DNA of 64,000 nt from Nitrospirota bacterium (GTDB taxonomy: Bacteria > Nitrospirota > Nitrospiria > Nitrospirales > Nitrospiraceae). Positions 10,758 to 59,959 of this stretch are shown piece by piece. The stretch lies in NCBI GenBank assembly GCA_963703955.1, contig CAVPGK010000021.1, positions 1 to 64,000 on the forward strand. The letters run 5' to 3'. The first letter of the stretch is position 1. Every line of letters starts with the position of its first letter. The notes under the pieces are model-generated. The model was not told the origin of the DNA. It saw nothing but the letters and a program-made list of their open reading frames with translations, and did no database searches. A program made the position numbers and the translations under genes.

Positions 10758-10853
10758 GAGAGGGCGGATGGGGTGGCTCCCACTGAGCGCATCGAGCGAG
10801 CACTTCCGATGTGCGCGCTCTGCGAGCACAGGAGCCACCCCATCCGCCCTCTC
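10758..10853. repeat. Repeat family B: conserved core closed by a 23-bp perfect inverted repeat
   Basis: Arms 10758-10780 and 10831-10853 are exact reverse complements; core cactgagcgcatcgagcgagcac-N7-gtgcgcgctctgcgagcac. Confidence 0.9.
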
Positions 10854-10856
10854 CCT

Positions 10857-11576
10857 CTATTCCCACGTTCTCGGCTTCTGATGCGCGCCGTCATACTCAC
10901 CCATGATAATTTTCCAAATCCATTCGTCCGGCAGTTCCACCTCCCAGCGCGGCATGGCCGACTTCCAGGGCATGCCCTCATTAGGAAGCCCAACCCCGCC
11001 CTTCTTGATTCGCCAGAACAGATAACTTTCCTGGAGCATCGCGATGGTGGTGGAGTCCGAAAAGTTCGCCGGGGGCGGATTGAAGCCTTTGGCGGCCGGC
11101 CCCTTGCCGTCGAAATTTCCTCCATGACACGGAGAGCAAAACGCGGCATAGAGCCCTTTTCCCGTCATGACGTTGTCCGGGGTATTGAGCACCGGATTCG
11201 AGAGACCCACAAATTCACCCGGAGGAGCCGGATGGATCGTCCGGTTTTCAGCAGGCGGCGCATCGCTCGGCGCCGTGCTGTTATAGGTCTGCCATCCGAT
11301 CAGGAGCGGAAACAGCACCAGCACCAGCATGCGGGCCGTCTTCATGGTTCCATCTTGGCCCTCCCCGCTCAAGAACCGAAAGATGGGCCCTAAAAACGCC
11401 TCCGTGGAATCGCCGCTCAGTGTCTCGAAAATCACGATACCGGTCGCCACGAGCGCGATGTAAAGAAAGATCAAACTAGCCGGCAACGGCGCCGTAAATA
11501 AGGGCAGTACGAATTTCAGAAAGAGGTAGGTCCCGACAATGATGATGACGGGCTTGACCAGCGCGTGTCCCTTCAT
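10857..11576 (-). CDS. Membrane-anchored monoheme cytochrome c
   Basis: Three N-terminal TM segments; CSPCH; distal Met in SAMP. Confidence 0.88.
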   Translation of the reverse strand: MKGHALVKPVIIIVGTYLFLKFVLPLFTAPLPASLIFLYIALVATGIVIFETLSGDSTEAFLGPIFRFLSGEGQDGTMKTARMLVLVLFPLLIGWQTYNSTAPSDAPPAENRTIHPAPPGEFVGLSNPVLNTPDNVMTGKGLYAAFCSPCHGGNFDGKGPAAKGFNPPPANFSDSTTIAMLQESYLFWRIKKGGVGLPNEGMPWKSAMPRWEVELPDEWIWKIIMGEYDGAHQKPRTWE

Positions 11577-11596
11577 AACGTCCACCTTCCTCACTT

Positions 11597-11739
11597 CAGG
11601 CTGCTGAAAAAGTCATCCAGCAGGCATTCTGGAGTAGCATTACGGAAACGGCCGCCTCACCACTCGGCGGCGTGCGCAAACGTGATGCTCGTTATTCCTC
11701 GCATCGCGCACCTTGCTGAAGGCCTTTTTGAACAGTCTG
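11597..11739. mobile_element. 143-bp MITE-like element with IS-type terminal inverted repeats
   Basis: Left end caggctgctgaaaaag; right end reverse complement cagactgttcaaaaag; no ORF. Confidence 0.65.
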
Positions 11740-11749
11740 ACCATGCCCT

Positions 11750-12352
11750 TTAGTTCGCCTGAGCCACGGTCACGGCTGAGGCGGTTTTCGTTGGCAGCGG
11801 CTGCGTAATCTCCGATGGGCTGACCGTGATCGGCTCTCCGCTCATCTGCTGCAGAAACGCGATCACGGACAGGATTTCATTATTGGAGAGTCCGATCGGG
11901 TTCTTATTGATGTGCGGCATCCGCGCGGGGTATTCCTTCGGCAGCCCCTCGTGCCGGTAGTCGAGATAGACGTACGCTTGCGGCTGCGTGAGACTCTCAT
12001 ACATGAATTCTCGGCTCAGCTTGGCTCCGATCCCCTTGAGGTCAGGGCACCGCGCCGACTCGCTCGGGCCGATCGAGTGACAGAGCGCGCACTGGCCCTT
12101 GCTGAAGAAGATCGTTTGGCCGATGGCGGCCATATCGGAGGCCGTCTTGATGGTGGCAACATCAAACTTCTCTTCAGCGGGCGGTAACGAAGCCATCTGC
12201 GGAACGCCCAGCGCAGTCATAGAAAACAGACCGAGAACGATGATGACGAATCCCACGACTCTAACGAATCGGGCCTGAATAAAAAGAAGGATGACGATCC
12301 CGAGGCCGATGACACAGAGACCAAGCACTTGCAACAACGCGACTTCACTCAT
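11750..12352 (-). CDS. Membrane-anchored monoheme cytochrome c
   Basis: Two TM helices; GQCALCH; RCPDLKGIG. Confidence 0.88.
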   Translation of the reverse strand: MSEVALLQVLGLCVIGLGIVILLFIQARFVRVVGFVIIVLGLFSMTALGVPQMASLPPAEEKFDVATIKTASDMAAIGQTIFFSKGQCALCHSIGPSESARCPDLKGIGAKLSREFMYESLTQPQAYVYLDYRHEGLPKEYPARMPHINKNPIGLSNNEILSVIAFLQQMSGEPITVSPSEITQPLPTKTASAVTVAQAN

Positions 12353-12402
12353 TTCCTTTTCCTCTCACACTCTCCCTCCACTGAGGCGCTGCTACTATTT
12401 AC

Positions 12403-12502
12403 GCGGGAGCGACCGCGTTGAGGTCCTACTGCGCGCATCGAGTGAGCACCGTCCTCGTGTGCGCACTCTGCGAGCACGGGACCTCAACGCGGTCGCTCCC
12501 GC
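12403..12502. repeat. Repeat family B copy with 24-bp perfect arms of different sequence
   Basis: gcgggagcgaccgcgttgaggtcc ... ggacctcaacgcggtcgctcccgc around tactgcgcgcatcgagtgagcac-N9-gtgcgcactctgcgagcac. Confidence 0.9.
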
Positions 12503-12524
12503 TTCCCACGACTAAAACAGCGCC

Positions 12525-14384
12525 TTATTTCCCTTCGTCCAGCGCCGGCGACCCTCCCGCCATGGCCGGCACTGCGCTTGCCGGAACCTTCTTCTCCCTG
12601 CCTGCCGGTCCCGGCGCTTTTCCCTTGTCCCCCATGGTGGCCACCCAGAAAATGAAGGCGACCAGCAGGCAGAACAAGAACGTGTTGAGCGACATGAGCG
12701 CCGCGGCATAGCCGAGGGCCGGAGAATAGGCATACTCGGAGGAGTCTCGCATCACCCCGTAGATATGCCAGTGGACGCGTGACGAGGAGCGCGCGTAGCC
12801 CATCAATGTCATGAGGAGGATGACCATCACCGCGTTCAACACCAGCGCGTACCCGGCCCGAGGCGGCATGCGGCCCCAGACCATCTCCGTCGTCGTTCTT
12901 GCGCTCCGCAACAGCACGGCTGTCAGAGGGGTGATCGTCACCATCACAAACAGTACGATCAACACCTGAGCAACTGAAAAGTAGTTAATCCGGACAATCG
13001 CCGGCACGAAATATCCCCAGACTCCCAACACGATCACCACGATCGCAGCCACGCCGAGGACTCCGGCATTGACCGCCTTGGCGATCTTTGCCCATGTCGC
13101 TGTCTCCTCCTTGCCGGCTCGCCAATACATGATAAAGCTCATGAACGTGACAAGAATCATGAGATTGGCCACGGTCATCTTAGCCGACATAACGCCGAAG
13201 ACCCCCAAGAGAGGATGGTGCGTCCCGCCCATCTTCCTGGCTTCTTCGAGCGAAGCAACCAGCGAGTGCGGGGTCATCCAGACACCCAGACAGAGCAGCA
13301 GGATCACGAGCATCGCCATGATCGGCTTCTTATACTTCACCTCCGCTCCCGGGATGCGGTAGGTGATCCCCAGCCAGAAATAATAGTTCGCCCCCAGGAA
13401 GAGCACACCGATCAGCATCGCTTGCAGGATGAACAGCCAGGATAAGAACCCGCCCATCAAGGTGATTCCCATCTGCTGGTTGTACTGATACACTTCGCGC
13501 ATCAGCCAATAACCGGCAAACGGCAACGGCAGCATTCCGAACACGCCGATGAAGTTTCCCACATACCCCATCCAATCGTAATGGTCCCGCTCCTCGGCGG
13601 TTGTGGCGGACAGATAGCGGATGCCGGCATAGGCGCCGCAGATGAAGCCGCCCAGCACCACATTGGCGATCAGACGATGGATATTCACCGGCCACCAGGT
13701 TGGGTTCCAGGTCGCCGCCCACGCGCGCGCGAAATCAGAGCCCTCGGCGATGACGACCGGGCTCGCCTGGAAGGTGGCCCAGGAGTTGGGCACGATCATG
13801 ATAAAGAACGCAAAGACGTTCAACAGGAACCCCAGAAACAGGTGAAAGACCTTGCCCCCCCCCTCTTGCATGGCGTCCCATCCGTACCAATACAAATACA
13901 GCGTGGCCGTTTCCAAGAGGAACAGAATGCAGTACACGACGAAAGAGGGAAAGAAGATGTCGGTCAAATAGTTCATCAGCTTGGGATAAAAGCCGATGAG
14001 CAGGAACAGCAGAATGCCTCCGAACAAGGCGGTCGTCGCATAGGAAGAGGTCAGCAGCTTGGTAAATTCTTTGGCCAGCTTGTCGTAGCGCTTCTCGCCG
14101 CCTTTCCACCCGACAATTTCGCACACCCACGCGAAGATCGGCACGCCCAAGACAAACCCAGCCAGCAGAAGGTGCAATTGTGCGACGATCCAGATGATGT
14201 TGCGGCTACCGAGCCCGGGAATATCACGATACGCGACCGCCGTCGTCGTCGTGGGAGCATCCTGTGAGAGAGCCAAGGCGGGAACGCCTATCAATCCAAT
14301 GAGTACGGCAAGCCCGGCGAGGCGCACTGCGTTGGTGCGCAGCGCATCGGCGAGCTTCTGTCGATGTCCGCCGTAAGTGTTCAT
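12525..14384 (-). CDS. Cytochrome bd-like oxidase subunit I homolog with extra His-His motif
   Basis: AQLHLLLAGFVLG and NIHRLIAN (CydA heme-ligand His positions); MTPH...GGTHHP; many TM helices. Confidence 0.85.
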   Translation of the reverse strand: MNTYGGHRQKLADALRTNAVRLAGLAVLIGLIGVPALALSQDAPTTTTAVAYRDIPGLGSRNIIWIVAQLHLLLAGFVLGVPIFAWVCEIVGWKGGEKRYDKLAKEFTKLLTSSYATTALFGGILLFLLIGFYPKLMNYLTDIFFPSFVVYCILFLLETATLYLYWYGWDAMQEGGGKVFHLFLGFLLNVFAFFIMIVPNSWATFQASPVVIAEGSDFARAWAATWNPTWWPVNIHRLIANVVLGGFICGAYAGIRYLSATTAEERDHYDWMGYVGNFIGVFGMLPLPFAGYWLMREVYQYNQQMGITLMGGFLSWLFILQAMLIGVLFLGANYYFWLGITYRIPGAEVKYKKPIMAMLVILLLCLGVWMTPHSLVASLEEARKMGGTHHPLLGVFGVMSAKMTVANLMILVTFMSFIMYWRAGKEETATWAKIAKAVNAGVLGVAAIVVIVLGVWGYFVPAIVRINYFSVAQVLIVLFVMVTITPLTAVLLRSARTTTEMVWGRMPPRAGYALVLNAVMVILLMTLMGYARSSSRVHWHIYGVMRDSSEYAYSPALGYAAALMSLNTFLFCLLVAFIFWVATMGDKGKAPGPAGREKKVPASAVPAMAGGSPALDEGK

Positions 14385-14405
14385 AACGATCTCCTGTCCA
14401 GTGGG

Positions 14406-15380
14406 CTAGTGCTTATGCCCGTCGTCCGCCTGCTCACGCGAATCGGCTTTGCCTGCCCCAACGTCCTTCTTCGGCCCCTTCGCGGGTTCGGCCTTTGTCG
14501 CGCTGACCGGCTGGACCTTTGACGCGGGGGCGTTGACCGATCCCTTGCCTTTGTCCTTTTCTTTAGGATCCTTGCTTTCGGCCTGGGCCTTCGCTTCGAG
14601 CGCCTCAACAGCCGTCTCAGCCTGGGCAATCAATTTTTCTGTTCTCTGCAAGGTCTCGGTCGGCCTGATCGGCTGAACCTTTGCCGTTTTTACCTTCTCC
14701 TTATAATCCTCGTGAGGGTGGGGCGTCATTACCGGCATCACGGCCCAGAACAGCAACACCAGCACCACGCCCACCGCAGTAAAGGCGGCCAATAGAAGCG
14801 GCTGATCCACCGGCACTCGCATCAGATCCCACTGTCGCACCAAGGCCGGGTACGGCGCATCGGCGGGAGGCGCGGCCGATACCTGTTTCCGCACAATCCA
14901 TCCGACGAGATACAGCCAACCGAAGACCAGAATCAGCAAGATCGCAGTGGCCACACTGCTCCAGAGCACCAGCTCAATGCTGATGCGCTCCGCCACCGGG
15001 ATGCTCTGTAGCAGCGCCATGATGGAGGCCGTCACCGACTTGGCCACGGCCACTACCTGGCTTTCGATCATATAGGCGATGGGTAGGTAGACGGCGCTCA
15101 TGAGCGCGATTTGCCACCACAGCGTGAGCCCGATGGACTCCGGCGGTTTGATATGAAGACGTTCGAGAAAGACGGTCTTTGCCGTCACGTTGAGCGCCCA
15201 GATGTCGATGGGAATGGATAAGACGAGGAGGACAGCCAGCCCAGGCATCTCCCAAGGATGAACCCCCATGGCAAGCAGCAACAGTACGAGAACGCATTTG
15301 ATCGGAATACCGGTCCAGAAAGCCGGCCACGCGATGCTCAGGCCCAGTTTGACCGGCGGCATACTCGACATCTGTCCCAT
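14406..15380 (-). CDS. Hypothetical membrane protein of the respiratory operon
   Basis: Several TM helices; Lys/Ala-rich tail; operon position. Confidence 0.8.
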   Translation of the reverse strand: MGQMSSMPPVKLGLSIAWPAFWTGIPIKCVLVLLLLAMGVHPWEMPGLAVLLVLSIPIDIWALNVTAKTVFLERLHIKPPESIGLTLWWQIALMSAVYLPIAYMIESQVVAVAKSVTASIMALLQSIPVAERISIELVLWSSVATAILLILVFGWLYLVGWIVRKQVSAAPPADAPYPALVRQWDLMRVPVDQPLLLAAFTAVGVVLVLLFWAVMPVMTPHPHEDYKEKVKTAKVQPIRPTETLQRTEKLIAQAETAVEALEAKAQAESKDPKEKDKGKGSVNAPASKVQPVSATKAEPAKGPKKDVGAGKADSREQADDGHKH

Positions 15381-15388
15381 ACTCGTTT

Positions 15389-15559
15389 CACCGCCCAGCC
15401 CCAGCGTCATTTCACCCGGCCCGCCCTGAACCTGCCAAGACAGGCTCTTTCCCAGGACGCGCTCTTCCTATTTCACCCGCCCACCCCAGGCGTGCCGAGA
15501 CGCGCTCCTTCGTTCTATTGCACCCGCCCACCCCAAGCGCGCCGGGACGCGCTCCTTCC
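15389..15559. repeat. Cluster of family A repeats: one nested pair plus two tandem copies
   Basis: Outer copy 15389-15468 interrupted by inner copy 15413-15453 (cctg-ccaaga-cagg); further copies at 15474-15511 and 15521-15559. Confidence 0.85.
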
Positions 15560-15565
15560 GGCGGG

Positions 15566-16678
15566 CTATTCCAGGAACTCTCGGTTAATGATCGCGGATA
15601 CGGTAAAGACCAAAATTCCGATCATGACAAGCAGCCATCCGACGAGCGCGACCGGCCGCTTGAAGATGTTGCGCTCCGGACTTCGGTCGATGAAGGGTAA
15701 GGCCGCCAGCAGGGCCATGAATGCGCCAGGCAGCGCAATAGCCCCCAGGAACTGCCCGAATTCTCCAGCGAAAATTTTCAACCGCAACAGTTGGAAGAGA
15801 AATAGGAAGTACCACTCGGGCTCCGGATGGTACTCACCGGGATCCGGGGTGGCTTCTTCAAGCAGCACGACAGGCTCGATGAACGCGAGGCTGCAAATCG
15901 CGAAAAAGACGGCGGCCATCGCAACGACGTCCTTCCAGATCTGCCGCGGGAAGAAATAATCGGTTTTCGCCTTGAGTTCTTCTGAGCTTCCCCGGAAGGG
16001 ACCGGCCGGCCCGGCCTTTCTGAAGAAGAACAAATGGAGCCCGGCCAACGCCATGAGGGTCGCCGGAAGGATCATGACATGGATGACGAAGAACCGGCTG
16101 AGCGTCATTTGGCCGGGCGTCGGCCCGCCTTTCAAGAACCGGGCGATGAAGTCGCCGATGACCGGCGTCTTGTCCATGATCTCGACACCCACCGTCGTCG
16201 CCCAATAGGCGCGCTGGTCCCACGGCAGGAGATAGCCTGTGAACCCGAAGCCCATGACGATGCCGAACAGCGCGAGCCCCACCAGCCAGATCATCTCGCG
16301 TGGCTTTTTGTACGCGCCCCACAGAAACACCTGCGACATGTGGGCAAAGACCATCACGACCATAGCCGTGGAACCCCAGAAGTGATAGCTGAGCAAAAAC
16401 CACCCATAGTCCACTTCATGGATGATGTACTGGGTGCTGGCGTAGGCGTGATCGGCGCTGGGGACGTAATAGAACATGAGCATGATGCCGGTCACCGCCT
16501 GCATAATAAAGATGAAGAGCAGGACGGACCCGAACACGTAGGCCCAGCGGGAGCCGCCGGGAACGGGTTCATTGAGCATCTTGGCCTGAAGAGTCTTCAG
16601 ACCGACGCGCTCATCGATGAACGCGACAACTTTTTCGATCGCACTGGGTTGAGTGGCGACTGACCGCTCGGCATCCAT
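15566..16678 (-). CDS. qcrB: Cytochrome b subunit of a bc-type complex
   Basis: YHFWGS...AHM, GFTGYLLPWDQRAYWA, FFVIHV...GLH and PEWY motifs. Confidence 0.93.
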   Translation of the reverse strand: MDAERSVATQPSAIEKVVAFIDERVGLKTLQAKMLNEPVPGGSRWAYVFGSVLLFIFIMQAVTGIMLMFYYVPSADHAYASTQYIIHEVDYGWFLLSYHFWGSTAMVVMVFAHMSQVFLWGAYKKPREMIWLVGLALFGIVMGFGFTGYLLPWDQRAYWATTVGVEIMDKTPVIGDFIARFLKGGPTPGQMTLSRFFVIHVMILPATLMALAGLHLFFFRKAGPAGPFRGSSEELKAKTDYFFPRQIWKDVVAMAAVFFAICSLAFIEPVVLLEEATPDPGEYHPEPEWYFLFLFQLLRLKIFAGEFGQFLGAIALPGAFMALLAALPFIDRSPERNIFKRPVALVGWLLVMIGILVFTVSAIINREFLE

Positions 16679-16771
16679 AGCAATCCGAACCTCTCAGGGG
16701 CTCGCACTCGTCTCACGAGGCTACGTGTACGGGGACGCCTCGCGTGGTGGATTTATCCGTTTCCGTATCCG

Positions 16772-17710
16772 CTAGACGATCCGTACCTGCGCTTTCGTAC
16801 CCGCCTTGAACTCCATGTCGACAATCTCGATGGCGCCGTTGGCGGCCACTCGGATCGGCAAGACATCCAGCGGACGCGGGGCCGGCCCGTCCAAGACCTT
16901 CCCGCCCGCGTCGTAGATACTCAAATGGCATGGGCACAGGAACACCTGGCCGAGCTTCTTGTGTGAGCGCCACTTGTATCCGCAGCCGAGGTGCGGGCAT
17001 TTTCCGGAATAGGCGATGTACGGAAAATTATGCTTATTGGTCCAGACGCTTCGCCCGGTGGGATCGTGAAACTCCATGTCCTTGCCCTTGTACACCTGCT
17101 CCAGAACGGCGGGAGACGCTTTGATAATCCAGACATTCTTGTCGATCTCGGCTTCCGGCATGAAAGCTTCCTTCACCTTCTTCTTGTACTTGAACTGGAC
17201 GCCGATATCCTCGGTCTTGATCTTGTTCGCGTTGCCGATACTCAGCCAGCTATTGTCGAACGGCGCGTACATCGGCTTCATGAGGTACTTGAGCACAGGA
17301 TAGACGAGGGGAAGCGCTATCAGCGCGCCGATCACCTGCGTGAAGTTGGCGAAAAACGTTCGACGCTTGACGTTTTTCTCCAGGTCCGGCAACGGGACCA
17401 GCACTTCCCCGGGCTCGACATGCAGGTGATCCTCGAGGTGCGCGATCTCGACTTCGTGAATCGTCACGTAGTCATCGCGTCGTAAGACGGGGAATTGCGC
17501 CATTTCGCTCGAGGAGGCGCGGAGTTGGACCGCGTCTTCCGTGACCCCTTGAACCTGCGCCATCGGAACCTGCCGCTCTAACGCCCCGGCCCCGTCTCCT
17601 CCGACAACAATATGGCTGATCTCATGGGAGAGAGGATCGACGATGACTCGCGTCACCTCCCCGCACTCTCGATCAACGCAGCGGACTTTGGATTTGAGCT
17701 TGGGCTGCAT
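16772..17710 (-). CDS. qcrA: Rieske Fe-S subunit with N-terminal PRC-barrel-like domain
   Basis: CPHLGC and CPCHLSIY; internal Tat-like KRRTFF plus TM helix. Confidence 0.92.
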   Translation of the reverse strand: MQPKLKSKVRCVDRECGEVTRVIVDPLSHEISHIVVGGDGAGALERQVPMAQVQGVTEDAVQLRASSSEMAQFPVLRRDDYVTIHEVEIAHLEDHLHVEPGEVLVPLPDLEKNVKRRTFFANFTQVIGALIALPLVYPVLKYLMKPMYAPFDNSWLSIGNANKIKTEDIGVQFKYKKKVKEAFMPEAEIDKNVWIIKASPAVLEQVYKGKDMEFHDPTGRSVWTNKHNFPYIAYSGKCPHLGCGYKWRSHKKLGQVFLCPCHLSIYDAGGKVLDGPAPRPLDVLPIRVAANGAIEIVDMEFKAGTKAQVRIV

Positions 17711-17711
17711 G

Positions 17712-18536
17712 CTACTTCTTTTTGATCGGCTTCGGCGTATTCACAGCCGGATTCTTCAACGTGGCCAGAAAGACAACCAGCGCATCGATTTCTTTCTCCT
17801 CCATCAGCTCCTTGTACTTATCCGGCATCTTCTTCTTTTCGTATTCTTTTTCAAACCCCTCCGCCATCCAGCTCTGGGGATCGATGACCTTCTGACGGAG
17901 TTCGTCCGGCTGCATGAGACTGCCGATGTTGTCAAGCTCAGGTCCGCGCTTCTTTCCGCCTTCCCCGAAGAGTTTGTGACAGTTGTAGCATTCTTGCAGG
18001 TTGTATTGCTCCTTCCCCAGCGCGACGAGATCCCCGGCGGCCGCCGCCGGCGCACCGCCCGCCGGCTTCTCACTATCGGTCCCCGGAACAGCCGAGACGG
18101 CGCCACCGACGGACTTGAGACGCTGCATGATCACATCGGCTTTCTCGGACAGCGCTTTGGTTCTGGCCAGCAGCTCCTCGGCTTTTCCCTGTTCCGTGGC
18201 CGCACGTTTGGCTTTGAGCAGTTTTTCTATCTTGCCTTTTTCGTCTTCAGGGTCGTATTGGGGCAGGAATGAGGCTCCGCCGATGTACAGGCTGGACATG
18301 ACCACATAAAAGACAAGCAATCCGACTACCGCCTTTGCTCCGCTGATGGGGCGAACCGAGGGCGCGTCGAGCAAGATGAACACCGCCGCGCCCAGCATAG
18401 CGTAAATGAAAAACATGGTCTGAAAGACCGGGGGAAAGGAGAGTGCCTTGGCGACGGCCACCAAGATGCCGCCGACGACGAGACCGATGATGCCCTTCTT
18501 CAGAACATTTTTGATCATGCTCGGCTGTTGGCCCAT
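17712..18536 (-). CDS. Membrane-anchored cytochrome c
   Basis: Three TM helices; CYNCH; GPELDNIG. Confidence 0.88.
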   Translation of the reverse strand: MGQQPSMIKNVLKKGIIGLVVGGILVAVAKALSFPPVFQTMFFIYAMLGAAVFILLDAPSVRPISGAKAVVGLLVFYVVMSSLYIGGASFLPQYDPEDEKGKIEKLLKAKRAATEQGKAEELLARTKALSEKADVIMQRLKSVGGAVSAVPGTDSEKPAGGAPAAAAGDLVALGKEQYNLQECYNCHKLFGEGGKKRGPELDNIGSLMQPDELRQKVIDPQSWMAEGFEKEYEKKKMPDKYKELMEEKEIDALVVFLATLKNPAVNTPKPIKKK

Positions 18537-18584
18537 AAAAGCCTCATACGCCTCGACTTAAGACTCGACGTGGCTGCCCTGGGT

Positions 18585-20303: not shown

Positions 20304-20332
20304 ATCCAGCCGCTCCCAGGAGAATCCGATGG

Positions 20333-20914: not shown

Positions 20915-21121
20915 AATTGGCTACCTATTCCTTTCTCTGTGAGCCATATCCCGATCACCGAGGTTCAGCCGGCACGGTCGGCAAAACCCTTAACAAAAAA
21001 GACGCCTTTACTCAGGCCGAGCCTCGAGCAAAAGCGCCACCTGACAGATCGCTCTTCAATTGTGAAACTGCTGATTCTGCCTCGATCGCGTTCCAGATAG
21101 CGGTCTGCACCACGCAGAGTG

Positions 21122-22332: not shown

Positions 22333-22457
22333 GGTTAGGCTGACCTCCGTGCTGGAGCGCGCTTGTTTCACCCAACCGCCCCAGGCGCGCCAAGACGCGC
22401 CCCTTCCCGGGAGCAGAGTGTGACTCGGCGGACGCACGCAGGGAGGTCAGCCTAGCC
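22333..22457. repeat. Family B copy (opposite orientation, 16-bp arms) with a family A copy inserted at 22369-22408
   Basis: Arms ggttaggctgacctcc / ggaggtcagcctagcc; B core halves flank ggcgcg-ccaaga-cgcgcc. Confidence 0.8.
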
Positions 22458-22467
22458 GCCCTTGAAG

Positions 22468-23485
22468 TTAGCGAAGGTTCGGCATTAGGGTGGCTTTGAC
22501 GGTGCGCCCGAAGCCGGACCAGGACCCGAACGTGTCCTCGACCGCTGAGGCTTCATACCCGCAGTGGACCATGCAGTCGGCGCACTTCTCGTTCCGTCCG
22601 GTCCCGTATTTCTCCCATTTGGTGTCGTTGATTAGCTCCTGAAACGTCTTCACATAGCCCTCTTGGAGCAAGTAGCAGGGCTTTTGCCACCCGAATATAT
22701 TGTACGTAGGATTCCCCCAGAGGCGTGCACTGATATTCGCGTTCTCCCATCAGGAACTCGAGAAAGAGCGGGGATTGATTGAAGCGCCAGGTCCTTTTGC
22801 GGTCGCTCAGAATTCTGGCAAACAGATCCCGTGTCCGGTTCCGCTTCAAGAAGTTCTTCTGATCCGGGGCCTTCTGGTAGCTGTACCCTGGTGAAATCAT
22901 CATCCCTTCGACGCCCAGCTTCATCATTTCGTCGAAAAAGCCCCGCACTCGTTCCGGGTTCGCATCATCAAACAGGGTCGTATTGGTGGTCACACGGAAT
23001 CCCCGATCGAGCGCCGCCCGAATAGCCTTGACGGCTACCTCGTAGACGCCGTCACGGCAGACCGCCAAATCGTGTTCCTCCCGCAGGCCATCCATATGAA
23101 TGCTGAAGGTCAAGTATTTCGAGGGGGCATAGTCGTTCAACTTCCGCTCGAGTAGGATCGCATTGGTGCAGAGATACACGTATTTCTTGCGTGCGACCAG
23201 ACCCCGAACAATCTCCGGCATTTCCGGGTGGATCAGCGGTTCCCCTCCCGGGATGCTCACCATCGGAGCACCGCACTCCTCAGCCGCGGCCCAGCATTGC
23301 TCAGGGGTCAGGCGCTTATCCAGCACATGATCGGGGTACTGAATCTTTCCACAGCCCGCGCAGGCCAAGTTACAACGAAAGAGCGGTTCGATCATGAGGA
23401 CGAGCGGGTAGCGCTTCACACCTTTGATCTTCTGGGTCAGAACATACTTCGCTACCGTATACGTTTGAGAAACGGGAACGGCCAT
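22468..23485 (-). CDS. hpnH: Adenosyl-hopene transferase, radical SAM (one frameshift at about 22720)
   Basis: EPLFRCNLACAGCGKI; CTPWGNP restored by removing one base; C-terminal CADCMVHCGYE in ORF 22468-22671. Confidence 0.92.
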
Positions 23486-45771: not shown

Positions 45772-45847
45772 TGGAGGCGCCGAGCGGGTTCGAACCGCTG
45801 CATCGCAGTTTTGCAGACTGCTCCCTTAGCCACTTGGGTACGGCGCC
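45772..45847 (-). tRNA. tRNA-Cys(GCA), complete with CCA
   Basis: GGCGCCG...GCAGT CTGCAAA ACTGC...GGTTCGAACC...CGGCGCCTCCA cloverleaf. Confidence 0.97.
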
Positions 45848-45871: not shown

Positions 45872-47074
45872 TCACGCAGGCTGCGCCTGGCTCACTAGGC
45901 CAGGTTGCGTCAGGGTTGCGGATTTGGCCGCTTCGGCGCTCATTCCCGGCCCTGCGTCTTGTGGGTCATCCAGTGCCTGCACATGGTGACGATTCGCACC
46001 TGGAAACAGGTAACAATAGATATTCAACGTGACGGAGATAGTACCATGGCCGAGTTGCTCCTGGATATACTTTGGATTGGCCCCTTGCTGAATGAGCAGG
46101 GACGCGAAGGTATGGCGCAGGTCATGAAATCGGACATGCCGCAGACCGGCCGCCTCCAGGCTGCGATACAGGGCCTTCCTCAGCGTGCGGGCACTCAACC
46201 GTTGATCGGAGGGGCCGAGAAATACCCACTCCGGCATCGGCTGGCCCTTCATCGCATACTCTAAACGCCTTGTCTCTTTCAAGGCCGCCAGGACAGCCGC
46301 TAATTGCGGTGACAGATCGACACGCCGGATCTTATGCGTCTTGGGCGTCGTCACCTGATGGCGCACGATTCCGCGCCGCACCTCAAGAAATTGGCCCCGG
46401 AAGTCGATATCCCCCCATTGCAGTCCGATCAATTCGCTTTCCCGCAGTCCGGTTCTGACCGCACAGAGCAAGACGGGATAGAACGCCGCCCAACGGTCCT
46501 GTGCCGTTTTGAGGAGGAGGCGGACTTCCTCAGCGGTCAACGGGTCAATATGGCTATTCGACGTGTCCCGCCGGCTGACCAAGCGGCCAGCGTTCAGGAC
46601 TGGATTGACGGTCACCAATCCATCATCGATGGCATGGTTGTAGGCCTCTTTCAGCGGTGTGAGAATGTTGTGCACGGTTTGCTTCTTGCGCCCGCTCGTC
46701 ACCAGCTCGGCAATCAGGCGCTTGACATCACTCCGCGTGACTTCATGCAGGGACCGCCCGCCGAGCGCCGGCAGAATGTGTTTCACAATGACCTTGCGAT
46801 ACTCGCTCGCCGTGCTTGCCTTACAATGCACGTCCGCATACGAGGAAAGCCACTCCATCAGATAATCCGCCACCGTGGGGATGCGGCCATCCGGCCGGGT
46901 GAGCGCACCTGTTCGCCACTCTGTTCGGCCCATTTCAGCTTGGCCGATAGTTTTTCGGCAAAGGCCTTTGCCTGTTTCTTGTCCTTGCCAAAGATCTTCG
47001 CCTTGCGCCGACCCTTCCAATCCGTCAGAACATACCAACCCTTTCCTGGTCGCTCACGTCAGTTTGACGCCCAT
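45872..47074 (-). CDS. Tyrosine integrase (two frameshifts in the N-terminal region)
   Basis: TGLRESE, HDLRHTFAS, LGH...TLNIY; AAGGAGG RBS plus MGVKL/RERPGKGWY start at 47074. Confidence 0.9.
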
Positions 47075-49158: not shown

Positions 49159-49267
49159 AGTGGGGCAGTTCTCTTTTTGAGCAACAAAGCTATCTCACTT
49201 TACCTGACTGCAATTCAGCAGCATACGATCCTGATAGACTTTGGCCCCGAATAAGTCGCGCTTTTAG

Positions 49268-50854: not shown

Positions 50855-51011
50855 TTAAGTGCTATAGGCATCCTGATACCAAGATGTTAGAGTTACTGCC
50901 ACTTCTGAACCTGCGTTTGCTGGAAGTCTGAAACGAAGCTTCTACATACGATTGGTTTGTCATCTCCTTCTGTTAGGTGTCGAAAAGCAGCTGAGAGCAG
51001 AATGGTGAACC

Positions 51012-52657: not shown

Positions 52658-53072
52658 AGAACGCCGGGCTCACGCGTAGTGAGACCCGGGATAGAGCAGT
52701 TCATCCTAGCGTTTGGAGATCGTGTTTACCGCCTGGCATACAAGCACCTGCGGCCAGAGGAGTACAGCCTGCTGGTCAGGCTGCCCCACTACAGCCGTAG
52801 GATCAGCCAGGAAGCGCATAGGACCGTCCTTCGCACCGATCCCCGAGAGGCGGTCATTTTCAAAAGTTGTGCGGGAGGGATAAACGCCACTGAGACGGTG
52901 GTGGCTGGGGGAGCGCTGCCCCCGGCCTCCCACCATCCCTTGAATGCCGGCGCCCCGCGCAGGTTGCGGCTGGGTTGCGGAGTTGCGGACAGGTGGCTAA
53001 GGTATGACGCAACCTGCCCACTGCCTGACACACAAGATGTTGTGGAACCAAGCACTTAGGGTGGACTACTAT

Positions 53073-53114
53073 CAGTTTTGCAGACTGCTCCCTTAGCCAC
53101 TTGGGTACGGCGCC
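53073..53114 (-). tRNA. 5' half of tRNA-Cys (att duplicate)
   Basis: Identical to 45806-45847; diverges at the last anticodon-stem base. Confidence 0.92.
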
Positions 53115-53122
53115 TTGACGGC

Positions 53123-53152
53123 ATTATAGCGAGCCGTCCCGCTACAACTCAA
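53123..53152 (-). promoter_or_regulatory. Native tRNA-Cys promoter, now upstream of the 5' fragment
   Basis: TTGAGT-18bp-TATAAT ending 8 bp before tRNA G1. Confidence 0.75.
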
Positions 53153-53220
53153 GGCGAGTACCTGCCCACCTCTCCTGCAGAGGCAATGGTATTGAGGTTG
53201 AAATCAGAAGGTTGAAAAGT

Positions 53221-54420
53221 CTACCGCTTGTTGGGAAGGACGGGGATTTCTCGAGTCGAGGACGACTGTGTGCTTGTCAATGACACCGGCTGTTCGGGGT
53301 ACCTTTTTCCACCATGAAGTGATGGGGCCGATTCGATCTGGTCAGAATCCTCCGCTTCTTTCTCTTTCGCCAAAATTTCGACTTCCTGAATCAGTGTCTC
53401 CATCAACTCTTCGGAGGGCACCTTGCGCAAAAGCTTGCCCTTCTTGAAAAGAATCCCGACACCTTCGCCGCCCGCGATGCCGATATCCGCTTCCTTCCCC
53501 TCGCCGATGCCGTTGACCACGCAGCCTAACACCGAGACGTTCAACGGGGCTCTGATGTGGCCGAGGCGCTTCTCCAACTCGTTCGCCAGGCGGACCACAT
53601 CGATCTCCACTCGGCCGCAGGTGGGGCAGGCGATCACGTTGATCCCGCGGTGGCGCAGTTCCAGCGACTTCAGAATTTCAAATCCGACCTTGACCTCTTC
53701 CACGGGGTCGGCCGCCAACGAGACACGGAGCGTATCACCGATGCCTTGCGACAGCAGCCAGCCGATGCCGATGGCCGATTTCACCGAGCCGGTCAGAATC
53801 GTACCGGCTTCGGTGATCCCCAAATGGAGCGGGAAATTGGACTGCTGCGAGAACAGCCAGTAGGCATCGACCGCCATGTGCACGTCAGACGCTTTCAGCG
53901 ACACTTTCATGTTGGTAAAGCCCACGTCCTCAAGCGCGTGCACGGCGTTCAGCGCAGATTCCGCCAGGGCTTCAGCCGTCGGATAGCCATATTTGTCGAG
54001 CAGGTGTCTCTCTAACGACCCGCCGTTTACGCCGATGCGTAAAGGAATCCCCCGGTCATTGACCGCCCTGATGACCTCGGCGGTCTTCCACCACGCACCG
54101 ATATTGCCCGGATTGATGCGCACGCAATCAACCACTTCGGCCGCCTTCAACGCCAGCCTATGGTCGAAATGAATATCGGAGATCAGCGGCACGGTCATCT
54201 GCGCCTTGATTTTGGGCAGCGCGTTGGCAGCCTCCATGTCCGGCACCGCCACGCGGATGACCTCGCAGCCAGCCTCCTCTAAACGGCGAATCTGCTCGAC
54301 CGTCGCCTTGATGTCGCGAGTGTCGGTAGTCGTCATGGATTGGACGGAGACTGGCGCGTCCCCTCCGATCTTGACCTTGCCGACCTTGATCTGTCTGGTT
54401 TTTCGCCGCGTGATGTACAT
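53221..54420 (-). CDS. ispG: HMBPP synthase
   Basis: VQSMT, DIHF, RINPGN, ACPTCGR, GCVVNG. Confidence 0.97.
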
Positions 54421-54441
54421 GCTCGTAGAGCTATCTTATTC

Positions 54442-56418
54442 TTAACTGCCCTGTTCATCGCCCTCGGATTGACTTCTCGCTCCAGGAACCACGGTGAACA
54501 ACTGGTTCCGGGCAGCGGTAGTCGGACGTGCTTTTGGCTCGGAGGATATCTGGTCCAGCAACGCTTTTGCGCTTTCGTAGATGCCTTCCGCCGTCAAGCC
54601 ATATCGTTCGCGCAGCAAATCCTGCGGTCCTTGCTCGATGTACCAATCCGGGAGCCCGACGATTTTCGTCGGCAGGTGCGTGACGCCTTGGTCGGACAGC
54701 GCTTCTAACACCGCTGATCCGAATCCGCCCATGCGAGCTCCTTCTTCCACCGTCAGTAGACACCGTACACCCTTGGCCACGTCGCCGATCAGAGCGGTAT
54801 CGAGCGGCTTCACAAATCGCCCATTCACGACCGCAGCGGAGATCCCTTCCTGCTCCAATCGTTCCGCCGCCTTGACGGCGGGCCAAACCGTCACGCCGAT
54901 GGCGACAATCGCGATGTCGCTTCCCGGCCTGAGGATCTCGCCTTTTCCGACAGGCAACGCGACCGGCTCCGGGTCCATCTGGACCCCGAGGCTCGTTCCG
55001 CGGGGATACCGCACCGATGCCGGTCCCTCGCAGCGCAGACAGGTCTTGATCATGTGCTGCAGTTCATTCTCATCCTTTGGCGCCATGACGATCATGTTGG
55101 GGACATGACGCAGGTAGGCAAAATCAAACGCGCCATGATGCGTCGTCCCATCCTCGGCTACCAGCCCGCCGCGATCAATGCAGAACGTGACCGGCAAATT
55201 CTGGGTGGCGACGTCATGGACGACCTGATCATACGCTCGCTGCAGGAAGGTGGCGTACATGGCCACGACCGGCCGCATGCCTTGCGCCGCAAGGCCGCCG
55301 GCGAAGGTGACCGCATGCTGCTCCGCAATGCCCACATCGTACAGGCGGTCGGGAAATTCCTTTTCAAAAGCCGTCAGTCCGGTTCCTTCGCACATAGCTG
55401 CCGTGATCGCCACGATCCGCTTGTCTTGCCTGGCCAATTTGGCCAGCGTGTTCATGGCAATGGCGGTGTAGGTCGGACGCGGCGACTTCTTGGCCGGCTT
55501 GCCGGTTTCGCGCTCGAACGCCGGGCAGGCGTGAAACCAGACGGGGTCTTGCATCGCCGGTCCGAATCCCAGGCCTTTCCTCGTAATGATGTGCAACAGG
55601 GTCGGACCTTTGAGTTTGAGGACGTTCTGGAGAGTCGGCAGGAGATGTTGGAAGTCGTGACCGTCGATCGGACCCACATAGCGGAACCCGAGTTCTTCGA
55701 ACAGCAACCCCGGAAGAATGAGCCCCTTCGCCAACTCCTCGGCCCGCCGGGCCATCTTCTGCATGGGCTCACCAATTTGAGGAATCGAGCGTAGAAACTG
55801 TCCGGTTTCCTCCCGGATGCGCGTGTAGAACTCGCCGGTGAACGTCCGATTCAAATACGACGAGATGGCTCCCACGTTCTTGGAAATGGACATCTGGTTG
55901 TCGTTCAGGATGACGAGAAAGTCCTTGCCCAAGCCACCGGCGTGGTGCAACCCTTCGAGGGTCATTCCCGCCGTCATGGCCCCATCGCCGACGACGCACG
56001 CGACCTTATGCGATTGCCCGAGTTGCTCTCGGGCTTCGACCATGCCGATGGCCGCGGACACGCCGGTGCCTGCATGGCCGGCATTAAAGGTGTCGTACTC
56101 GCTCTCTTCGCGCTTGCAGAACCCGCTCAATCCACCATACTGCCGAAGTGTGTGAAATCGCTCGCGACGTCCAGTGAGCAGCTTGTGCGTATAGGCCTGA
56201 TTGCTGGTATCCCAGACAATCTTGTCCTTGGGGGTATCCAGCAGATAATGCAGAGCCACAGTCAACTCCACGACCCCGAGATTTGAAGCAAGATGGCCCC
56301 CAACATTGGAGACCACGGAGATGATCTGTTCACGGATCTCCTGGGAGAGGGTCGGAAATTGTGCCGGAGACAGCCGTTTCAGATCATCTGGGCTATGAAT
56401 AGTTTTCAACAACGACAT
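54442..56418 (-). CDS. dxs: 1-deoxy-D-xylulose-5-phosphate synthase
   Basis: GGHLASNLGVVEL, GDGAMT, VGIAEQHA, IDRGG. Confidence 0.97.
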   Translation of the reverse strand: MSLLKTIHSPDDLKRLSPAQFPTLSQEIREQIISVVSNVGGHLASNLGVVELTVALHYLLDTPKDKIVWDTSNQAYTHKLLTGRRERFHTLRQYGGLSGFCKREESEYDTFNAGHAGTGVSAAIGMVEAREQLGQSHKVACVVGDGAMTAGMTLEGLHHAGGLGKDFLVILNDNQMSISKNVGAISSYLNRTFTGEFYTRIREETGQFLRSIPQIGEPMQKMARRAEELAKGLILPGLLFEELGFRYVGPIDGHDFQHLLPTLQNVLKLKGPTLLHIITRKGLGFGPAMQDPVWFHACPAFERETGKPAKKSPRPTYTAIAMNTLAKLARQDKRIVAITAAMCEGTGLTAFEKEFPDRLYDVGIAEQHAVTFAGGLAAQGMRPVVAMYATFLQRAYDQVVHDVATQNLPVTFCIDRGGLVAEDGTTHHGAFDFAYLRHVPNMIVMAPKDENELQHMIKTCLRCEGPASVRYPRGTSLGVQMDPEPVALPVGKGEILRPGSDIAIVAIGVTVWPAVKAAERLEQEGISAAVVNGRFVKPLDTALIGDVAKGVRCLLTVEEGARMGGFGSAVLEALSDQGVTHLPTKIVGLPDWYIEQGPQDLLRERYGLTAEGIYESAKALLDQISSEPKARPTTAARNQLFTVVPGARSQSEGDEQGS

Positions 56419-56597
56419 ACAGTCTTCTCCTCGTAAGGTGGCGGCTTAGCCTTCTGAGCTTATGAATGAAGTAGCTTGCTGACAGGGGTTCTTCGCAGGT
56501 ATGGGGTAGTTGACTAAGCTTCCGGCTAGTTTCCCACAGATTGTTTGTCATGTCAAGCACTTAGGCCAAGATCTTTAGACCGGCCTAGCTAATAGGG

Positions 56598-57629
56598 TCA
56601 CCGAGGAAACCGATAGGTGACGACGGTGGACAGGGTAAAATCAGCCGCCGCTCCCGTGATCAAATCTACATTCTGAATCCCATAGACCTGCCAGAGCAGA
56701 TTGTTCCGGAGGCGATAGTTGAACCCTGCGGCGACTTCAGTGACACCCCGATCTAGGACCTTGATACCGGTTCCATAGTAAGGACTTGAATAATAATCAA
56801 ATTGTGCGGTGATGGAGAACCGCGGCGACCAGAGATACTCGAGCCCGACGAGGCTCGTTATGAACGGTTGCAGTGTCAGACCCTCCACCTTACCTGTGGG
56901 AAAAACACCATTGACGTTGCCATAAAAAACCAGGGTCGACCGAACCGCCTTTTCGATCGCCAGCCCGATTCCGAGATCGACCTCGCCGCTCCCGAACAGT
57001 TGGCTAGAGTTTCCGGTGGGCGCCTTGACTGCAACACGTAAGGACACGGCAGGGAGACGTTCGGTCTGGGACAGGAGCAGATACTTACCGTGCAGCGAAA
57101 TATCGCTCAATCCGAACTGATCCTCCCCTCCCGCAAACAGCGTCTGGCCGTTTTTACTGACGTTGTACGCGTATCCGATCCCTTGCAAGGCCTGCCGGGT
57201 TCCGGACAACCCGCTTGTGGCTCGTTCAACCGCGGTGATGAGCCCGTTCAGCGCCCCTCCGCCGTACCGATAGATAGCCGGGATCTCAAGCCCAACTTCC
57301 AGGCGGTTGGTGAGCCCATAACGAAGGAACAGCGCCGAGCGCTCCGTCTCCAGATTCATCGTCGTCCGTACAAGCGCGAAGAAGGGTGGGTTTGTCTCCT
57401 CACTGGCGATCATATTCGTCACCGCCAACTCGACCCGAACATCCAGCGTGCCTTTCTTGAGGACAGCCGCCGGAGCTCCGGGCATGTTCAAAAACAAGAG
57501 CTGCAGGGGTTGGAAATTCCTGACCGGAAGCGGGCCGAATCCCTCGGCTTCTGCCTCGGCTTGGTGAGCACCGACGAGCACAAGGAGAACGGCCACAGTC
57601 GCCGCCCAAGCGAGTTTCAGACGACTCAT
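56598..57629 (-). CDS. Outer-membrane beta-barrel-like protein (DUF3187-like)
   Basis: Signal peptide; GPLPVRN; alternating beta strands; C-terminal YRF. Confidence 0.7.
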   Translation of the reverse strand: MSRLKLAWAATVAVLLVLVGAHQAEAEAEGFGPLPVRNFQPLQLLFLNMPGAPAAVLKKGTLDVRVELAVTNMIASEETNPPFFALVRTTMNLETERSALFLRYGLTNRLEVGLEIPAIYRYGGGALNGLITAVERATSGLSGTRQALQGIGYAYNVSKNGQTLFAGGEDQFGLSDISLHGKYLLLSQTERLPAVSLRVAVKAPTGNSSQLFGSGEVDLGIGLAIEKAVRSTLVFYGNVNGVFPTGKVEGLTLQPFITSLVGLEYLWSPRFSITAQFDYYSSPYYGTGIKVLDRGVTEVAAGFNYRLRNNLLWQVYGIQNVDLITGAAADFTLSTVVTYRFPR

Positions 57630-57646
57630 GCTTCGCGGGTGCTCAG

Positions 57647-58846
57647 CTAGAAGGGAAAATCAAGTCCGGCAAAGACCGCGCCTCCTTCGCTGCTGTAGCC
57701 ATAATCGATCCGCCCGACCATACTCGGCCTGACCAATCCGCGAAAACCGATGCCCGGCGTGACTTCATAGTCGCGGAGCGGTCGCTTACTGAACGCGTTA
57801 AAGACTTTGCCCATATCGACGAAGGGCGCGATTTCAAAATCGGCTGCCACGTTAAAAATCTTGGTTCGCATCACGTGAATGCGTTCTTCAATGTTCAGCA
57901 CCACCAGATGGTCGTCGATAAACCGGTCCACACCATAGCCTCGAAGGTTATTCTGCCCACCGAGTGAGCTTAGTTCATAAAAGGGCACCTGACTCCCGAA
58001 TGTCAATTGCATCTCGCCGCGCACCACGAGGATCATCCGCTTCGACTCGCTCGGAAACAGCTTTTTGACCTCGAGCCCATACCGGTAGTACAACGGATTG
58101 TCCCCGTTGCTGAAATTTTGATTCAGTTCTGCGTAGGCGGTGAATCGAGTCCCGGCCGTCGGCGTCACCAAACTGTCGCGGGTATCGTAATAGAACGTGA
58201 CCCGACTGCCCAGAATCGAAGCCCCGTCCATTCCGGCCACCTGCGGAAACACCTGGGCAGAGAACGGCAGGTCGGGCACGATGCCTGGCTCGACACGCAC
58301 GTCGCGATACCGTTGACCTACCGAGACTTGCGTCACCTCATTGAGATGCAAACCGAATCTCCAACTGGCACGAATTTCTCTGGCCGTATAGTTCGTCTGA
58401 TCGCTTAACGTCGTCTGTTGGCTGATCCCGAAGAAACGTGACGTCGCATTCTTGAAGAACGAACCGCCGACATCGAATGCGTATCGGCCATGGCTGAAGG
58501 CAGGGTCCGAGTAACTGAGGACAAGCTTCCGCTCGATTTTTTCCGAATACGATCCGATGAATACGAACTGCCGCCCCCCTGGCTCGTACTTGAACAGATT
58601 GAAGGACCCTCGGGCGCCCACGAACGAATTCACGATGAACATCGGGGCGACGAGGTACTTAAGCTCTCCGTCCGGGGCCGTCTTAAGAATCGGCACGATG
58701 AATCCGGCATCATTGCCGTCATTTTTGCTGGTCGAGACGGAAGGAATCGGAAAGTACGACGTATCGGCGCGAGTCGGCTTGACACTACCGAGAACACAGG
58801 CAAGTGCCACGAGAAGAGACAGGAAGACGCGCAAGCCCGCAGGCAT
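57647..58846 (-). CDS. BamA/TamA (Omp85) family barrel-only protein (start approximate)
   Basis: LGGQNNLRGY; C-terminal GLDFPF; no POTRA region. Confidence 0.82.
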   Translation of the reverse strand: MPAGLRVFLSLLVALACVLGSVKPTRADTSYFPIPSVSTSKNDGNDAGFIVPILKTAPDGELKYLVAPMFIVNSFVGARGSFNLFKYEPGGRQFVFIGSYSEKIERKLVLSYSDPAFSHGRYAFDVGGSFFKNATSRFFGISQQTTLSDQTNYTAREIRASWRFGLHLNEVTQVSVGQRYRDVRVEPGIVPDLPFSAQVFPQVAGMDGASILGSRVTFYYDTRDSLVTPTAGTRFTAYAELNQNFSNGDNPLYYRYGLEVKKLFPSESKRMILVVRGEMQLTFGSQVPFYELSSLGGQNNLRGYGVDRFIDDHLVVLNIEERIHVMRTKIFNVAADFEIAPFVDMGKVFNAFSKRPLRDYEVTPGIGFRGLVRPSMVGRIDYGYSSEGGAVFAGLDFPF

Positions 58847-59031
58847 TCGGGACACAACGCAGGATCGTTGCAGAATATTGAACCGCACCAACACCGTCGC
58901 GCTCGGTTGGTCACATCTCCTTGTCGATCGAGCGACCCTGCAGGCGATTCGAGTGCCTGTCACACCACCGCATCTGGGCAGCTATGCGGCCGAATCGGGA
59001 GCCCAGAGCAGCTAGACCAACCGTGGAACAC

Positions 59032-59691
59032 TCACCTGTCTTTGTCGTCAGCCTTCGGAGCTGAGAAGGTGTCCGACTTATGGCGCAGCTTCTCGACCAA
59101 ATCTTCATACGAGGACGAGTGGAGAATCTTGGAGAATTGCCCTCGGTAGTTGCTGACCATACTGACCCCATCCAACACAAGGTCATAGACACGCCACTCA
59201 TCTGATTTTTTCAGGAGCCGATAATCCAGAGGGATTTCGGTCTTGCCTGTCATGATCTTGGTTCGCACCTCGGCATACCCGTCCTTGAGCCGCTCGTTCA
59301 GGAACTTGACCTGTTGCCCCGAGTAATCTTGGATTCTACTGGCGTACGTGTTGGTAAGGAGTTTCTGAAACAGTCCCACGAATTCGTGCTGTTGTGTTTC
59401 ATCCAATTTCGGCCACTGCGCGCCCAGGGATCTCTTGGCCATTTCCTCATAACTGAACCGTTCCTCGAACAGCTTTTCGAGTTTCTGGCGCCGCTCCCTA
59501 GCGTGCTCCGGCTTTTTCAGTTCCTTGTCCTCTAAAACGTGAACCATTTGATCAAGCAGATTCTGCACCGATTCGGTCGCGGTCATGGTGGCCAGACTCC
59601 GCGACCCCCCTATCATGAGGCTTCCCATGACAAGACCGAGCACGATCGGCCTCGCAGCGTACCGATTCGGTCTTTGAATCAACGACCACAT
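59032..59691 (-). CDS. mlaC: MlaC/Ttg2D (HpnM-like) lipid-binding protein
   Basis: MAKRSLG..W; WRVYDLVLDGVSMVSNYRGQF. Confidence 0.9.
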   Translation of the reverse strand: MWSLIQRPNRYAARPIVLGLVMGSLMIGGSRSLATMTATESVQNLLDQMVHVLEDKELKKPEHARERRQKLEKLFEERFSYEEMAKRSLGAQWPKLDETQQHEFVGLFQKLLTNTYASRIQDYSGQQVKFLNERLKDGYAEVRTKIMTGKTEIPLDYRLLKKSDEWRVYDLVLDGVSMVSNYRGQFSKILHSSSYEDLVEKLRHKSDTFSAPKADDKDR

Positions 59692-59733
59692 ATTCCCTCC
59701 ACTTTCGTTAAGCCTTCTTGCCTGTCTTGTCCA

Positions 59734-59834
59734 ACTGCGCGCATCGATTACACCCGCCCACCCCAGGCGCCATCTCACCCGCCCGCCCCGAGCTGGCCAA
59801 GACCAGCTCTTTGCCCGATGGACGCGCCCCTTCC
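59734..59834. repeat. Truncated family B core followed by a nested pair of family A repeats
   Basis: actgcgcgcatcga; then outer A 59751-59834 interrupted by inner A (gagctgg-ccaaga-ccagctc). Confidence 0.82.
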
Positions 59835-59863
59835 TGAAGGGTCCCCTCTCTTCACACCTTACA

Positions 59864-59959
59864 AGCGGGTAGTTCGGCTTGCCACTACTGCGCGCGTCCA
59901 CCGAGCACATTCTTATCGTGCGCGGTGCGCGAGCACGGTGGCTAGCCGAGCTACCCGCT
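59864..59959. repeat. Family B copy with 22-bp arms
   Basis: agcgggtagttcggcttgccac ... gtggctagccgagctacccgct around tactgcgcgcgtccaccgagcac-N9-gtgcgcggtgcgcgagcac. Confidence 0.88.

Follow-up and report, generated by a model that had tools for sequence, protein, structure and literature searches.

Short palindromic intergenic repeats lying near stop codons are familiar from the ERIC/IRU and Correia families and from the miniature inverted-repeat transposable elements, or MITEs, derived from IS5, and repeats of such kind are often mis-called as short hypothetical genes. The described systems closest to the element considered here are the REPINs, extragenic multicopy hairpins of ~100 nt with compensated stem changes, a 5' single-stranded tail and no encoded enzyme (PMC3116915, PMC6006769); the attC sites, structure-defined DNA hairpins in which G:T pairs favour the non-coding bottom strand (1.24 vs 0.39 per site; PMC5027507); and the oriIS of IS91/ISCR elements (PMC13181058). 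Repetitive extragenic palindromic (REP) sequences of Escherichia coli that lie <16 nt from a stop codon can, in addition, reduce translation (PMC12306157). We have analysed a stretch of 64,000 nucleotides from a Nitrospirota bacterium of the Nitrospiraceae (assembly GCA_963703955.1, contig CAVPGK010000021.1, positions 1 to 64,000; hereafter the window), in which a first-pass annotation made from the sequence alone had noticed a repeat, here called family B, with a conserved structured core closed by long arms. Family B is real, Nitrospiraceae-wide and apparently undescribed. The account we favour, to which we give about an even chance, is that it is a polar, non-coding hairpin repeat that nests in itself, adjoins stop codons or promoters and has likely spread as a folded single strand by means of an enzyme acting in trans.

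Results

The source genome is 82% complete, the window is its contig C21, and the relatives of the window's proteins are Nitrospiraceae. A core-profile search of this genome gave 37 matches below E 1e-3 among the 64 listed, with intact arms in 26. These were compared with copies from related genomes and with a metagenome set from an exact-pattern search (at least 122 stretches, of which 80 were retrieved), the pattern being biased to the subfamilies that fit it; arm clusters, box tests and MITE counts refer to a pooled set of 205 family B copies. The exact core pattern occurs three times in the window and in none of 20 Markov-resampled windows.

The hairpin is ~96 nt long, with arms of ~24 bp closing a 50-nt tip that carries two purine mismatches, a TC bulge and a 9-nt loop. 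It had been proposed that the inner stem covaries while G·A mismatches are retained, and both points are borne out: among 21 aligned genome copies both sides change in 29 of 40 pairs, a score reached by 0 of 500 shuffles, and pairing falls from 91% to 34–49% when the alignment is slid. Every one of the 86 cluster representatives has G·A at the outer mismatch (a figure that the search pattern partly imposes), and 84 of them have A·G at the inner. An alternative fold into two small hairpins was dropped because GAGGG core variants break it.

In the arm interiors of the displayed strand, scored symmetrically, G·T outnumbers A·C by 40 to 6 in the 26 genome copies, by 80 to 19 in 59 relatives and by 167 to 29 in the metagenome set; with one copy taken from each of 86 clusters the counts are 123 and 27, about 4.5:1. 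Other intergenic hairpins of the same genome, a noisy control set of 107, gave 104 and 96. The displayed strand is the stabler in 22 of 28 copies when folded as RNA and in 25 of 28 when folded as DNA, and this G·T-rich folding strand is nearly always the non-mRNA strand. Single changes newly arisen in place, at 13 orthologous sites in one genus, divide into 20 G·T and 24 A·C without strand bias (coding non-B rows, four of them with counts, were excluded, and three of the retained rows compare different alleles or chimeras). Since the skew is found overall and change in place is symmetric, the fold appears to be filtered at copying and not at the resident site, so that it is likely selected when B is copied, not in mRNA.

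The arms were originally described as near-perfect inverted repeats unrelated between copies, and only the first half of that description stands, with near-perfect pairing over 22–24 bp in the three intact copies of the window. Arm identity between copies is 42%, against 30.5% (SD 0.5) for shuffled arms and 80% for the core, and purine/pyrimidine identity is 68% against 51% in the control. Most arms are 22–26 bp long. The pooled copies form 98 arm clusters, the largest of 23, 21, 19 and 12 members, and 78 are singletons; the largest clusters are mostly scattered over unrelated loci, one subfamily is common to two genera, and within subfamilies there are 64 compensated double changes where ~8 doubles are expected. 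This homology, the recurrence of subfamilies and the compensated changes together indicate that the arms are part of the family B element; they are inherited, and the suggestion that they arise by inverted copying of flanking DNA is not supported. The annotation had also raised the case of a few fixed subfamilies matching known insertion sequence (IS) ends; shared subfamilies do occur, with no match to any IS end examined.

In nested cases the unit consists of a pyrimidine-rich 5' leader (mostly 11–60 nt), the ~96-nt hairpin and a 3' trailer of ~5 nt. The unit ends lie outside the arms and carry no terminal inverted repeats, TA is present at both ends in 1 of 205 copies, and the flanks are 69% pyrimidine on the 5' side and 80% on the 3' side. 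Among 33 cases with B remnants on both sides of an inner copy, 23 have the outer copy taking up again at core position 22, beyond the ~5-nt trailer, and the fixed junction precedes C-CTTC; the 5' break is spread over core positions 7 to 43 and is followed by the leader. Some of these junctions show overlaps of ~6 nt and some show deletions. The inner copies belong to at least three separate clades and are paired with many outer arm types, which argues for several nesting events, though recombination may have multiplied a few. Remnants of B or of the short repeat family A lie upstream of a copy in the same orientation in 65 of 205 cases and in the opposite orientation in 10, and after a family A insert B resumes near core position 15, again with a variable 5' break. 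Family A itself is a repeat of ~45 nt with a plan like that of B (pyrimidine leader, short hairpin, pyrimidine tail), found in the window at 10687–10731, 15471–15562, 22366–22410 and 59748–59833; it inserts into B and into an abundant IS5-type MITE, here MITE D, and forms tandems.

Family B is polar with respect to transcription. At co-directional gene junctions, scored with gene calls made for this analysis, antisense copies outnumber mRNA-sense copies by 21 to 0 in the genome, 33 to 5 in relatives and 41 to 10 in metagenomes, two sense exceptions (copy 3 of the window and one weak copy) lying outside these counts by the score cut. The proportion of copies within 25 nt of a stop codon is 22 of 26 in the genome, 31 of 61 in relatives and 30 of 102 in metagenomes, so that this proximity is strong in the source genome and weaker elsewhere. 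Of 49 copies with the 3' gene on their own strand, 15 have TTGAC no more than 30 nt from the 3' arm, against 1 of 133; the 3' end of family B adjoins a −35 box or a stop codon. A one-sided lean with respect to mRNA is also seen in families A, C and D (antisense to sense 20:3 for family A, with leans of 17:6 and 16:4 for C and D), and part of the B orientation bias may therefore reflect general selection. A replication-strand bias is a weaker trend, confounded with gene direction.

The neighbours of B are core operon genes. Low-GC DNA lies on the leader side of 13 of 44 and 19 of 53 copies, with 0 and 1 on the other side. Capture of genes by B is not claimed, stop-adjacent copies showing no excess over ordinary junctions (1/20, 2/23 and 0/19). 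Low-GC genes, different ones in different species at a given site, are enclosed by divergent B pairs (L038:12328–13362, L403, L408, L230, L240, L222, L421, L424 and L434), and the cargo between the pairs at L038, L222 and L421 contains attC-like sites, which suggests integrase-less cassette platforms. Small genes of toxin–antitoxin type appear to be frequent beside B in relatives (L194, L222, L244, L247, L251, L036, L038, L427 and L429).

Occupancy of orthologous junctions is patchy. At the junction of copy 1, 7 of 77 other genomes have B, and these are dispersed across the tree; at that of copy 2, none of the 73 orthologous sites recovered has it. Compensated differences at one site distinguish copy 1 from its orthologue at L083. 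B cores and arms recombine at fixed sites, and in genus g18 B alleles and alleles made of heptamer tandem repeats take each other's place as entire spacers; such heptamer spacers are alternative whole-spacer alleles to B at the same operon junctions (L155–L174, L419–L422 and L075–L154). In one case, L117 (compared with L119, L112 and L126), a patch from a distant lineage brought in B, the ribosome-binding region and the initial ~90 nt of the next gene, a signal peptide region.

A covariance model of B matched 16 of 18 other Nitrospiraceae genomes and gave few, putative matches in 2 of 12 genomes from other families of the order. In a phylum sample at E 1e-6, 14 of 17 Nitrospiraceae genomes were matched and 0 of 123 genomes from outside the family; viral contigs gave 0 exact core-pattern matches. 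The motif is not in Rfam: at gathering score a model search of the window found nothing but a tRNA, and by E-value there were sub-threshold microRNA-type matches only, on 7 loci. No description of family B was found in the literature on Nitrospira repeats or on bacterial non-autonomous retroelements, a search that left outside it subscription journals and supplements, including the RepRanger REP lists for Nitrospira moscoviensis. The accessible portion of PMC12306157 names that species solely in a count table, and that of PMC3184786 gave no match to the terms sought.

Four copies had been listed in the window as full, and this holds for copies 1, 2 and 4, which contain the core as it was described. 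Copy 1 (10758–10853, + strand) has arms at 10758–10780 and 10831–10853 around a core at 10782–10829, copy 2 (12403–12502, +) has perfect 24-bp arms and its core at 12428–12477, and copy 4 (59864–59959, +) has its core at 59887–59936. As DNA they fold with z-scores of −10.7, −11.1 and −9.7, respectively, equalled by 0 of 200 shuffles, and they score 96–102 bits. Copy 3 (22333–22457, − strand), with 16-bp arms, is degenerate, scores 25 bits (E 0.016) and carries a family A insert (22366–22410, +) in its loop. All four lie within about 25 bp of a stop codon, as claimed: the stop of a cytochrome c gene (10857–11576, −) is 3 nt away from copy 1, copy 2 is 22 nt from a stop at 12525, copy 4 is 7 nt from the stop of mlaD (59967–60410, −), and copy 3 lies ~10 nt past the stop of the frameshifted hpnH. 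Copy 3 is the sole mRNA-sense copy in the window. The strand first displayed for copies 1, 2 and 4 is antisense to the mRNA, a point overlooked in the first reading, as were the older half-copies upstream of copies 1 and 4. The former is a partial B core on the + strand (10675–10740, core positions ~1–20, right half missing) interrupted by the family A insert at 10687–10731; the latter, also on the + strand, has putative boundaries at 59734–59847 and contains tandem family A-type units (~59748–59833). Each is followed by a pyrimidine-rich 5' leader on the + strand with putative boundaries, at 10741–10757 for copy 1 and 59848–59863 for copy 4, and the closest relative, L075, has a leader homologous to the former.

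The hpnH gene (22467–23485, −) has a one-base frameshift near 22721; the extra base is missing from the contigs of relatives in two sequencing runs, so that it is either an assembly error or a private lesion. A further intergenic repeat, family C, is present at 11645–11738 and genome-wide, and nests in MITE D and in B. An IS5-type transposase gene of 367 aa (L477:817–2140, contig C6 of G000), bounded by the terminal repeats of MITE D, is likely the autonomous partner of that MITE. A tRNA at 45775–45847, whose 44-nt end is repeated at 53073–53116, and a tyrosine-integrase-like gene at 45872–46933 mark an integrated element of ~7 kb. Contig C10 of G000 carries a reverse transcriptase (RT) gene with an internal TGA (L188), and that genome also has two copies of IS110.

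Discussion

The proposal that family B is a mobile element recognized as a single strand, by logic like that of REPINs or attC sites, is backed by the G·T strand excess, by subfamilies spread over many loci, by nesting at a fixed base and by patchy presence. Under the account we favour, the conserved tip would be bound by an HUH-type enzyme acting on single strands, like that of REPINs or IS91, which would join the 3' end of B precisely to a pyrimidine-rich target, leaving the 5' end ragged. Copying would be confined to elements that retain a folding strand of their own, and the arms would consequently drift, with G·T as the intermediate of compensated changes. Insertions, like deletions on the 3' side, would be tolerated as far as the nearest −35 box or stop codon, copies in mRNA sense would be largely purged, and recombination between copies and between genomes would then reshuffle cores, arms and whole junction alleles.

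Several observations weigh against this account. The strand skew is compatible with DNA and RNA intermediates alike, and recombination may have spread the nested cases from a small number of events. There is no general target duplication, repeats in the flanks being no more frequent than in permuted pairs, and outside nested cases the target motif is weakly enriched ([CG]TT[CG] in 69 of 151 sites against 55.5 expected). Twelve of 205 B copies lie inside MITE D, none of the 12 in the source genome. No clean filled/empty pair was found at high identity, orthologous spacers being mostly swapped whole, and among contigs from 8 runs none bridged an empty site. No enzyme could be tied to B. By Pfam/NCBIfam family, genes for Y1 transposases are present in 131 of 200 Nitrospiraceae genomes, IS110 in 99, RT in 67 and IS91 in 9; in samples of the matching loci, B was found at 1 of 54 Y1 loci out of ~360 (inside a MITE ~1.2 kb from the gene), at 1 of 30 IS110 loci (where a truncated IS lies to the leader side), at 0 of 32 RT loci, at 0 of 12 IS91 loci bar one match of E 0.024, and at 0 of 8 DDE loci, and no integrase gene was linked to it. 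Genome G017, which has the most B matches and is 99% complete, gave no Y1, IS91, RT, IS110 or DDE_Tnp_1 match and no integron integrase over the cut-off. Pfam searches with 141 of the 163 proteins beside metagenome copies and with 35 others identified no transposase or recombinase.

The lack of an enzyme at the sampled loci is what would be expected if no dedicated transposase existed and an old repeat had been spread by recombination alone, through exchange of junction alleles, conversion, homology-anchored illegitimate joins and carriage by MITEs. The whole-spacer swaps with heptamer-repeat alleles, the L117 patch, the fixed sites at which cores and arms recombine and the copies within MITE D are all in keeping with such a history, and illegitimate joins would give one precise and one ragged end. 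Recombination alone nevertheless leaves unexplained both the invariant mismatches and a 4.5:1 strand excess that is absent from change in place, and the same subfamily is found at many unrelated loci outside MITE D; we regard it as doubtful. Precise 3' junctions with ragged 5' ones are the pattern left by target-primed copying, and B might instead resemble a short interspersed element (SINE), RNA of the displayed strand being copied into DNA at a primed target by an RT in trans. The ~6-nt overlaps and the deletions at some junctions are consistent with this, G·U pairs and purine mismatches suit RNA, for which the displayed strand is the better in 22 of 28 copies, and RT genes are present in 67 of 200 Nitrospiraceae genomes. 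Set against it are the rarity of the displayed strand within mRNA, the frequent position of same-strand copies upstream of a −35 box, the empty count at RT loci and the want of any RT match in G017 and G004; folding as DNA, moreover, prefers that strand too (25 of 28 copies), and a similar G:T skew is found in attC sites, themselves DNA (PMC5027507). We consider this route rather unlikely. A related and tentative idea, on balance doubtful too, is that B and family A, with its like plan of leader, hairpin and tail, are both moved by machinery beyond the known Y1, IS91, IS110, DDE and integrase classes: a conserved host enzyme that works on folded single-stranded DNA, or else the reverse transcription, by target priming, of a small RNA; were the latter true, B would be a bacterial SINE-like element homing to its own tip.

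The first-pass annotation had also entertained a protein-binding RNA motif tuning operon stoichiometry, and a hairpin past stop codons could act in mRNA as a stabiliser, an RNase site or a ribosome-stalling structure. The proximity of 22 of 26 genome copies to stops, the compensated changes between copy 1 and its L083 orthologue and the precedent of E. coli REPs near stops (PMC12306157) would suit such a role. It is made improbable by a favoured fold on the non-mRNA strand, by the rarity of B at orthologous junctions (7 of 77 and 0 of 73), by strand-symmetric decay in place and by the smaller share of stop-proximal copies elsewhere (31/61 and 30/102), although incidental effects of B on mRNA are possible. 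That B is an attC-type site for an integron integrase is very improbable indeed. It does follow stops with a fixed polarity, and its G·T pairs favour the bottom strand as in attC (PMC5027507), but the RYYYAAC and GTTRRRY boxes are found in 0 of 205 copies, its neighbours are core operon genes, an integron integrase over the cut-off was present in 1 of 5 genomes tested, and at some loci attC-like sites distinct from B lie close by.

Family B thus adds an uncatalogued, Nitrospiraceae-wide repeat in key nitrifying bacteria, with rules as to the folding strand, the fixed end and the base at which older copies are joined, and it helps to explain the rapid turnover of intergenic DNA in Nitrospira. 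As the genome richest in B is without every usual transposase class searched, finding the mover of B could reveal a new route of small-element mobility.

Among described systems, family B shares with the REPIN/REP-RAYT system its extragenic, multicopy distribution, a long hairpin of ~100 nt with compensated stem changes, a 5' single-stranded tail and the lack of an encoded enzyme (PMC3116915, PMC6006769). The pattern of conservation is reversed: REPINs keep their terminal REPs, whereas in B it is the tip that stays constant and the outer arms that drift (42% identity, against 80% in the core). The GT[AG]G guide at the foot of REPIN hairpins is not a feature of B (on the displayed strand GTAG and GTGG each occur in 2 of 205 copies, and on the opposite one in 12 and 17), no RAYT locus among the Y1 loci sampled is flanked by B, the one copy being MITE-borne, and, unlike REPINs, B is strictly polar to genes and nests in itself at one base. 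With attC sites it has in common a structure-defined single-strand hairpin past a stop codon, G:T pairs that favour the non-coding strand and conserved unpaired features within a variable stem (PMC5027507), but it lacks the R-box consensus, cassette arrays and a link to IntI, and lies between core genes. Its unit ends, without terminal inverted repeats or a target duplication such as TA or YTAR, and with TA at both ends in a single copy, set it apart from the ERIC/IRU, Correia and IS5-derived repeats. In its junctions it recalls the oriIS of IS91/ISCR, with one fixed end beside a short pyrimidine-containing target, a subterminal palindrome, a variable other end and no regular target duplication (PMC13181058); B, however, contains no transposase gene, outside nested cases its enrichment for a target of the CTTG/GTTC type is weak, and IS91-type genes, present in 9 of 200 genomes, are not B-flanked at the 12 loci sampled, nor is there homology to the end of a Y2 transposase element there beyond one match of E 0.024. 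Family B is a variant among palindromic non-autonomous mobile repeats, observed to be polar, strand-biased and self-nesting, for which we infer a single-strand mechanism.

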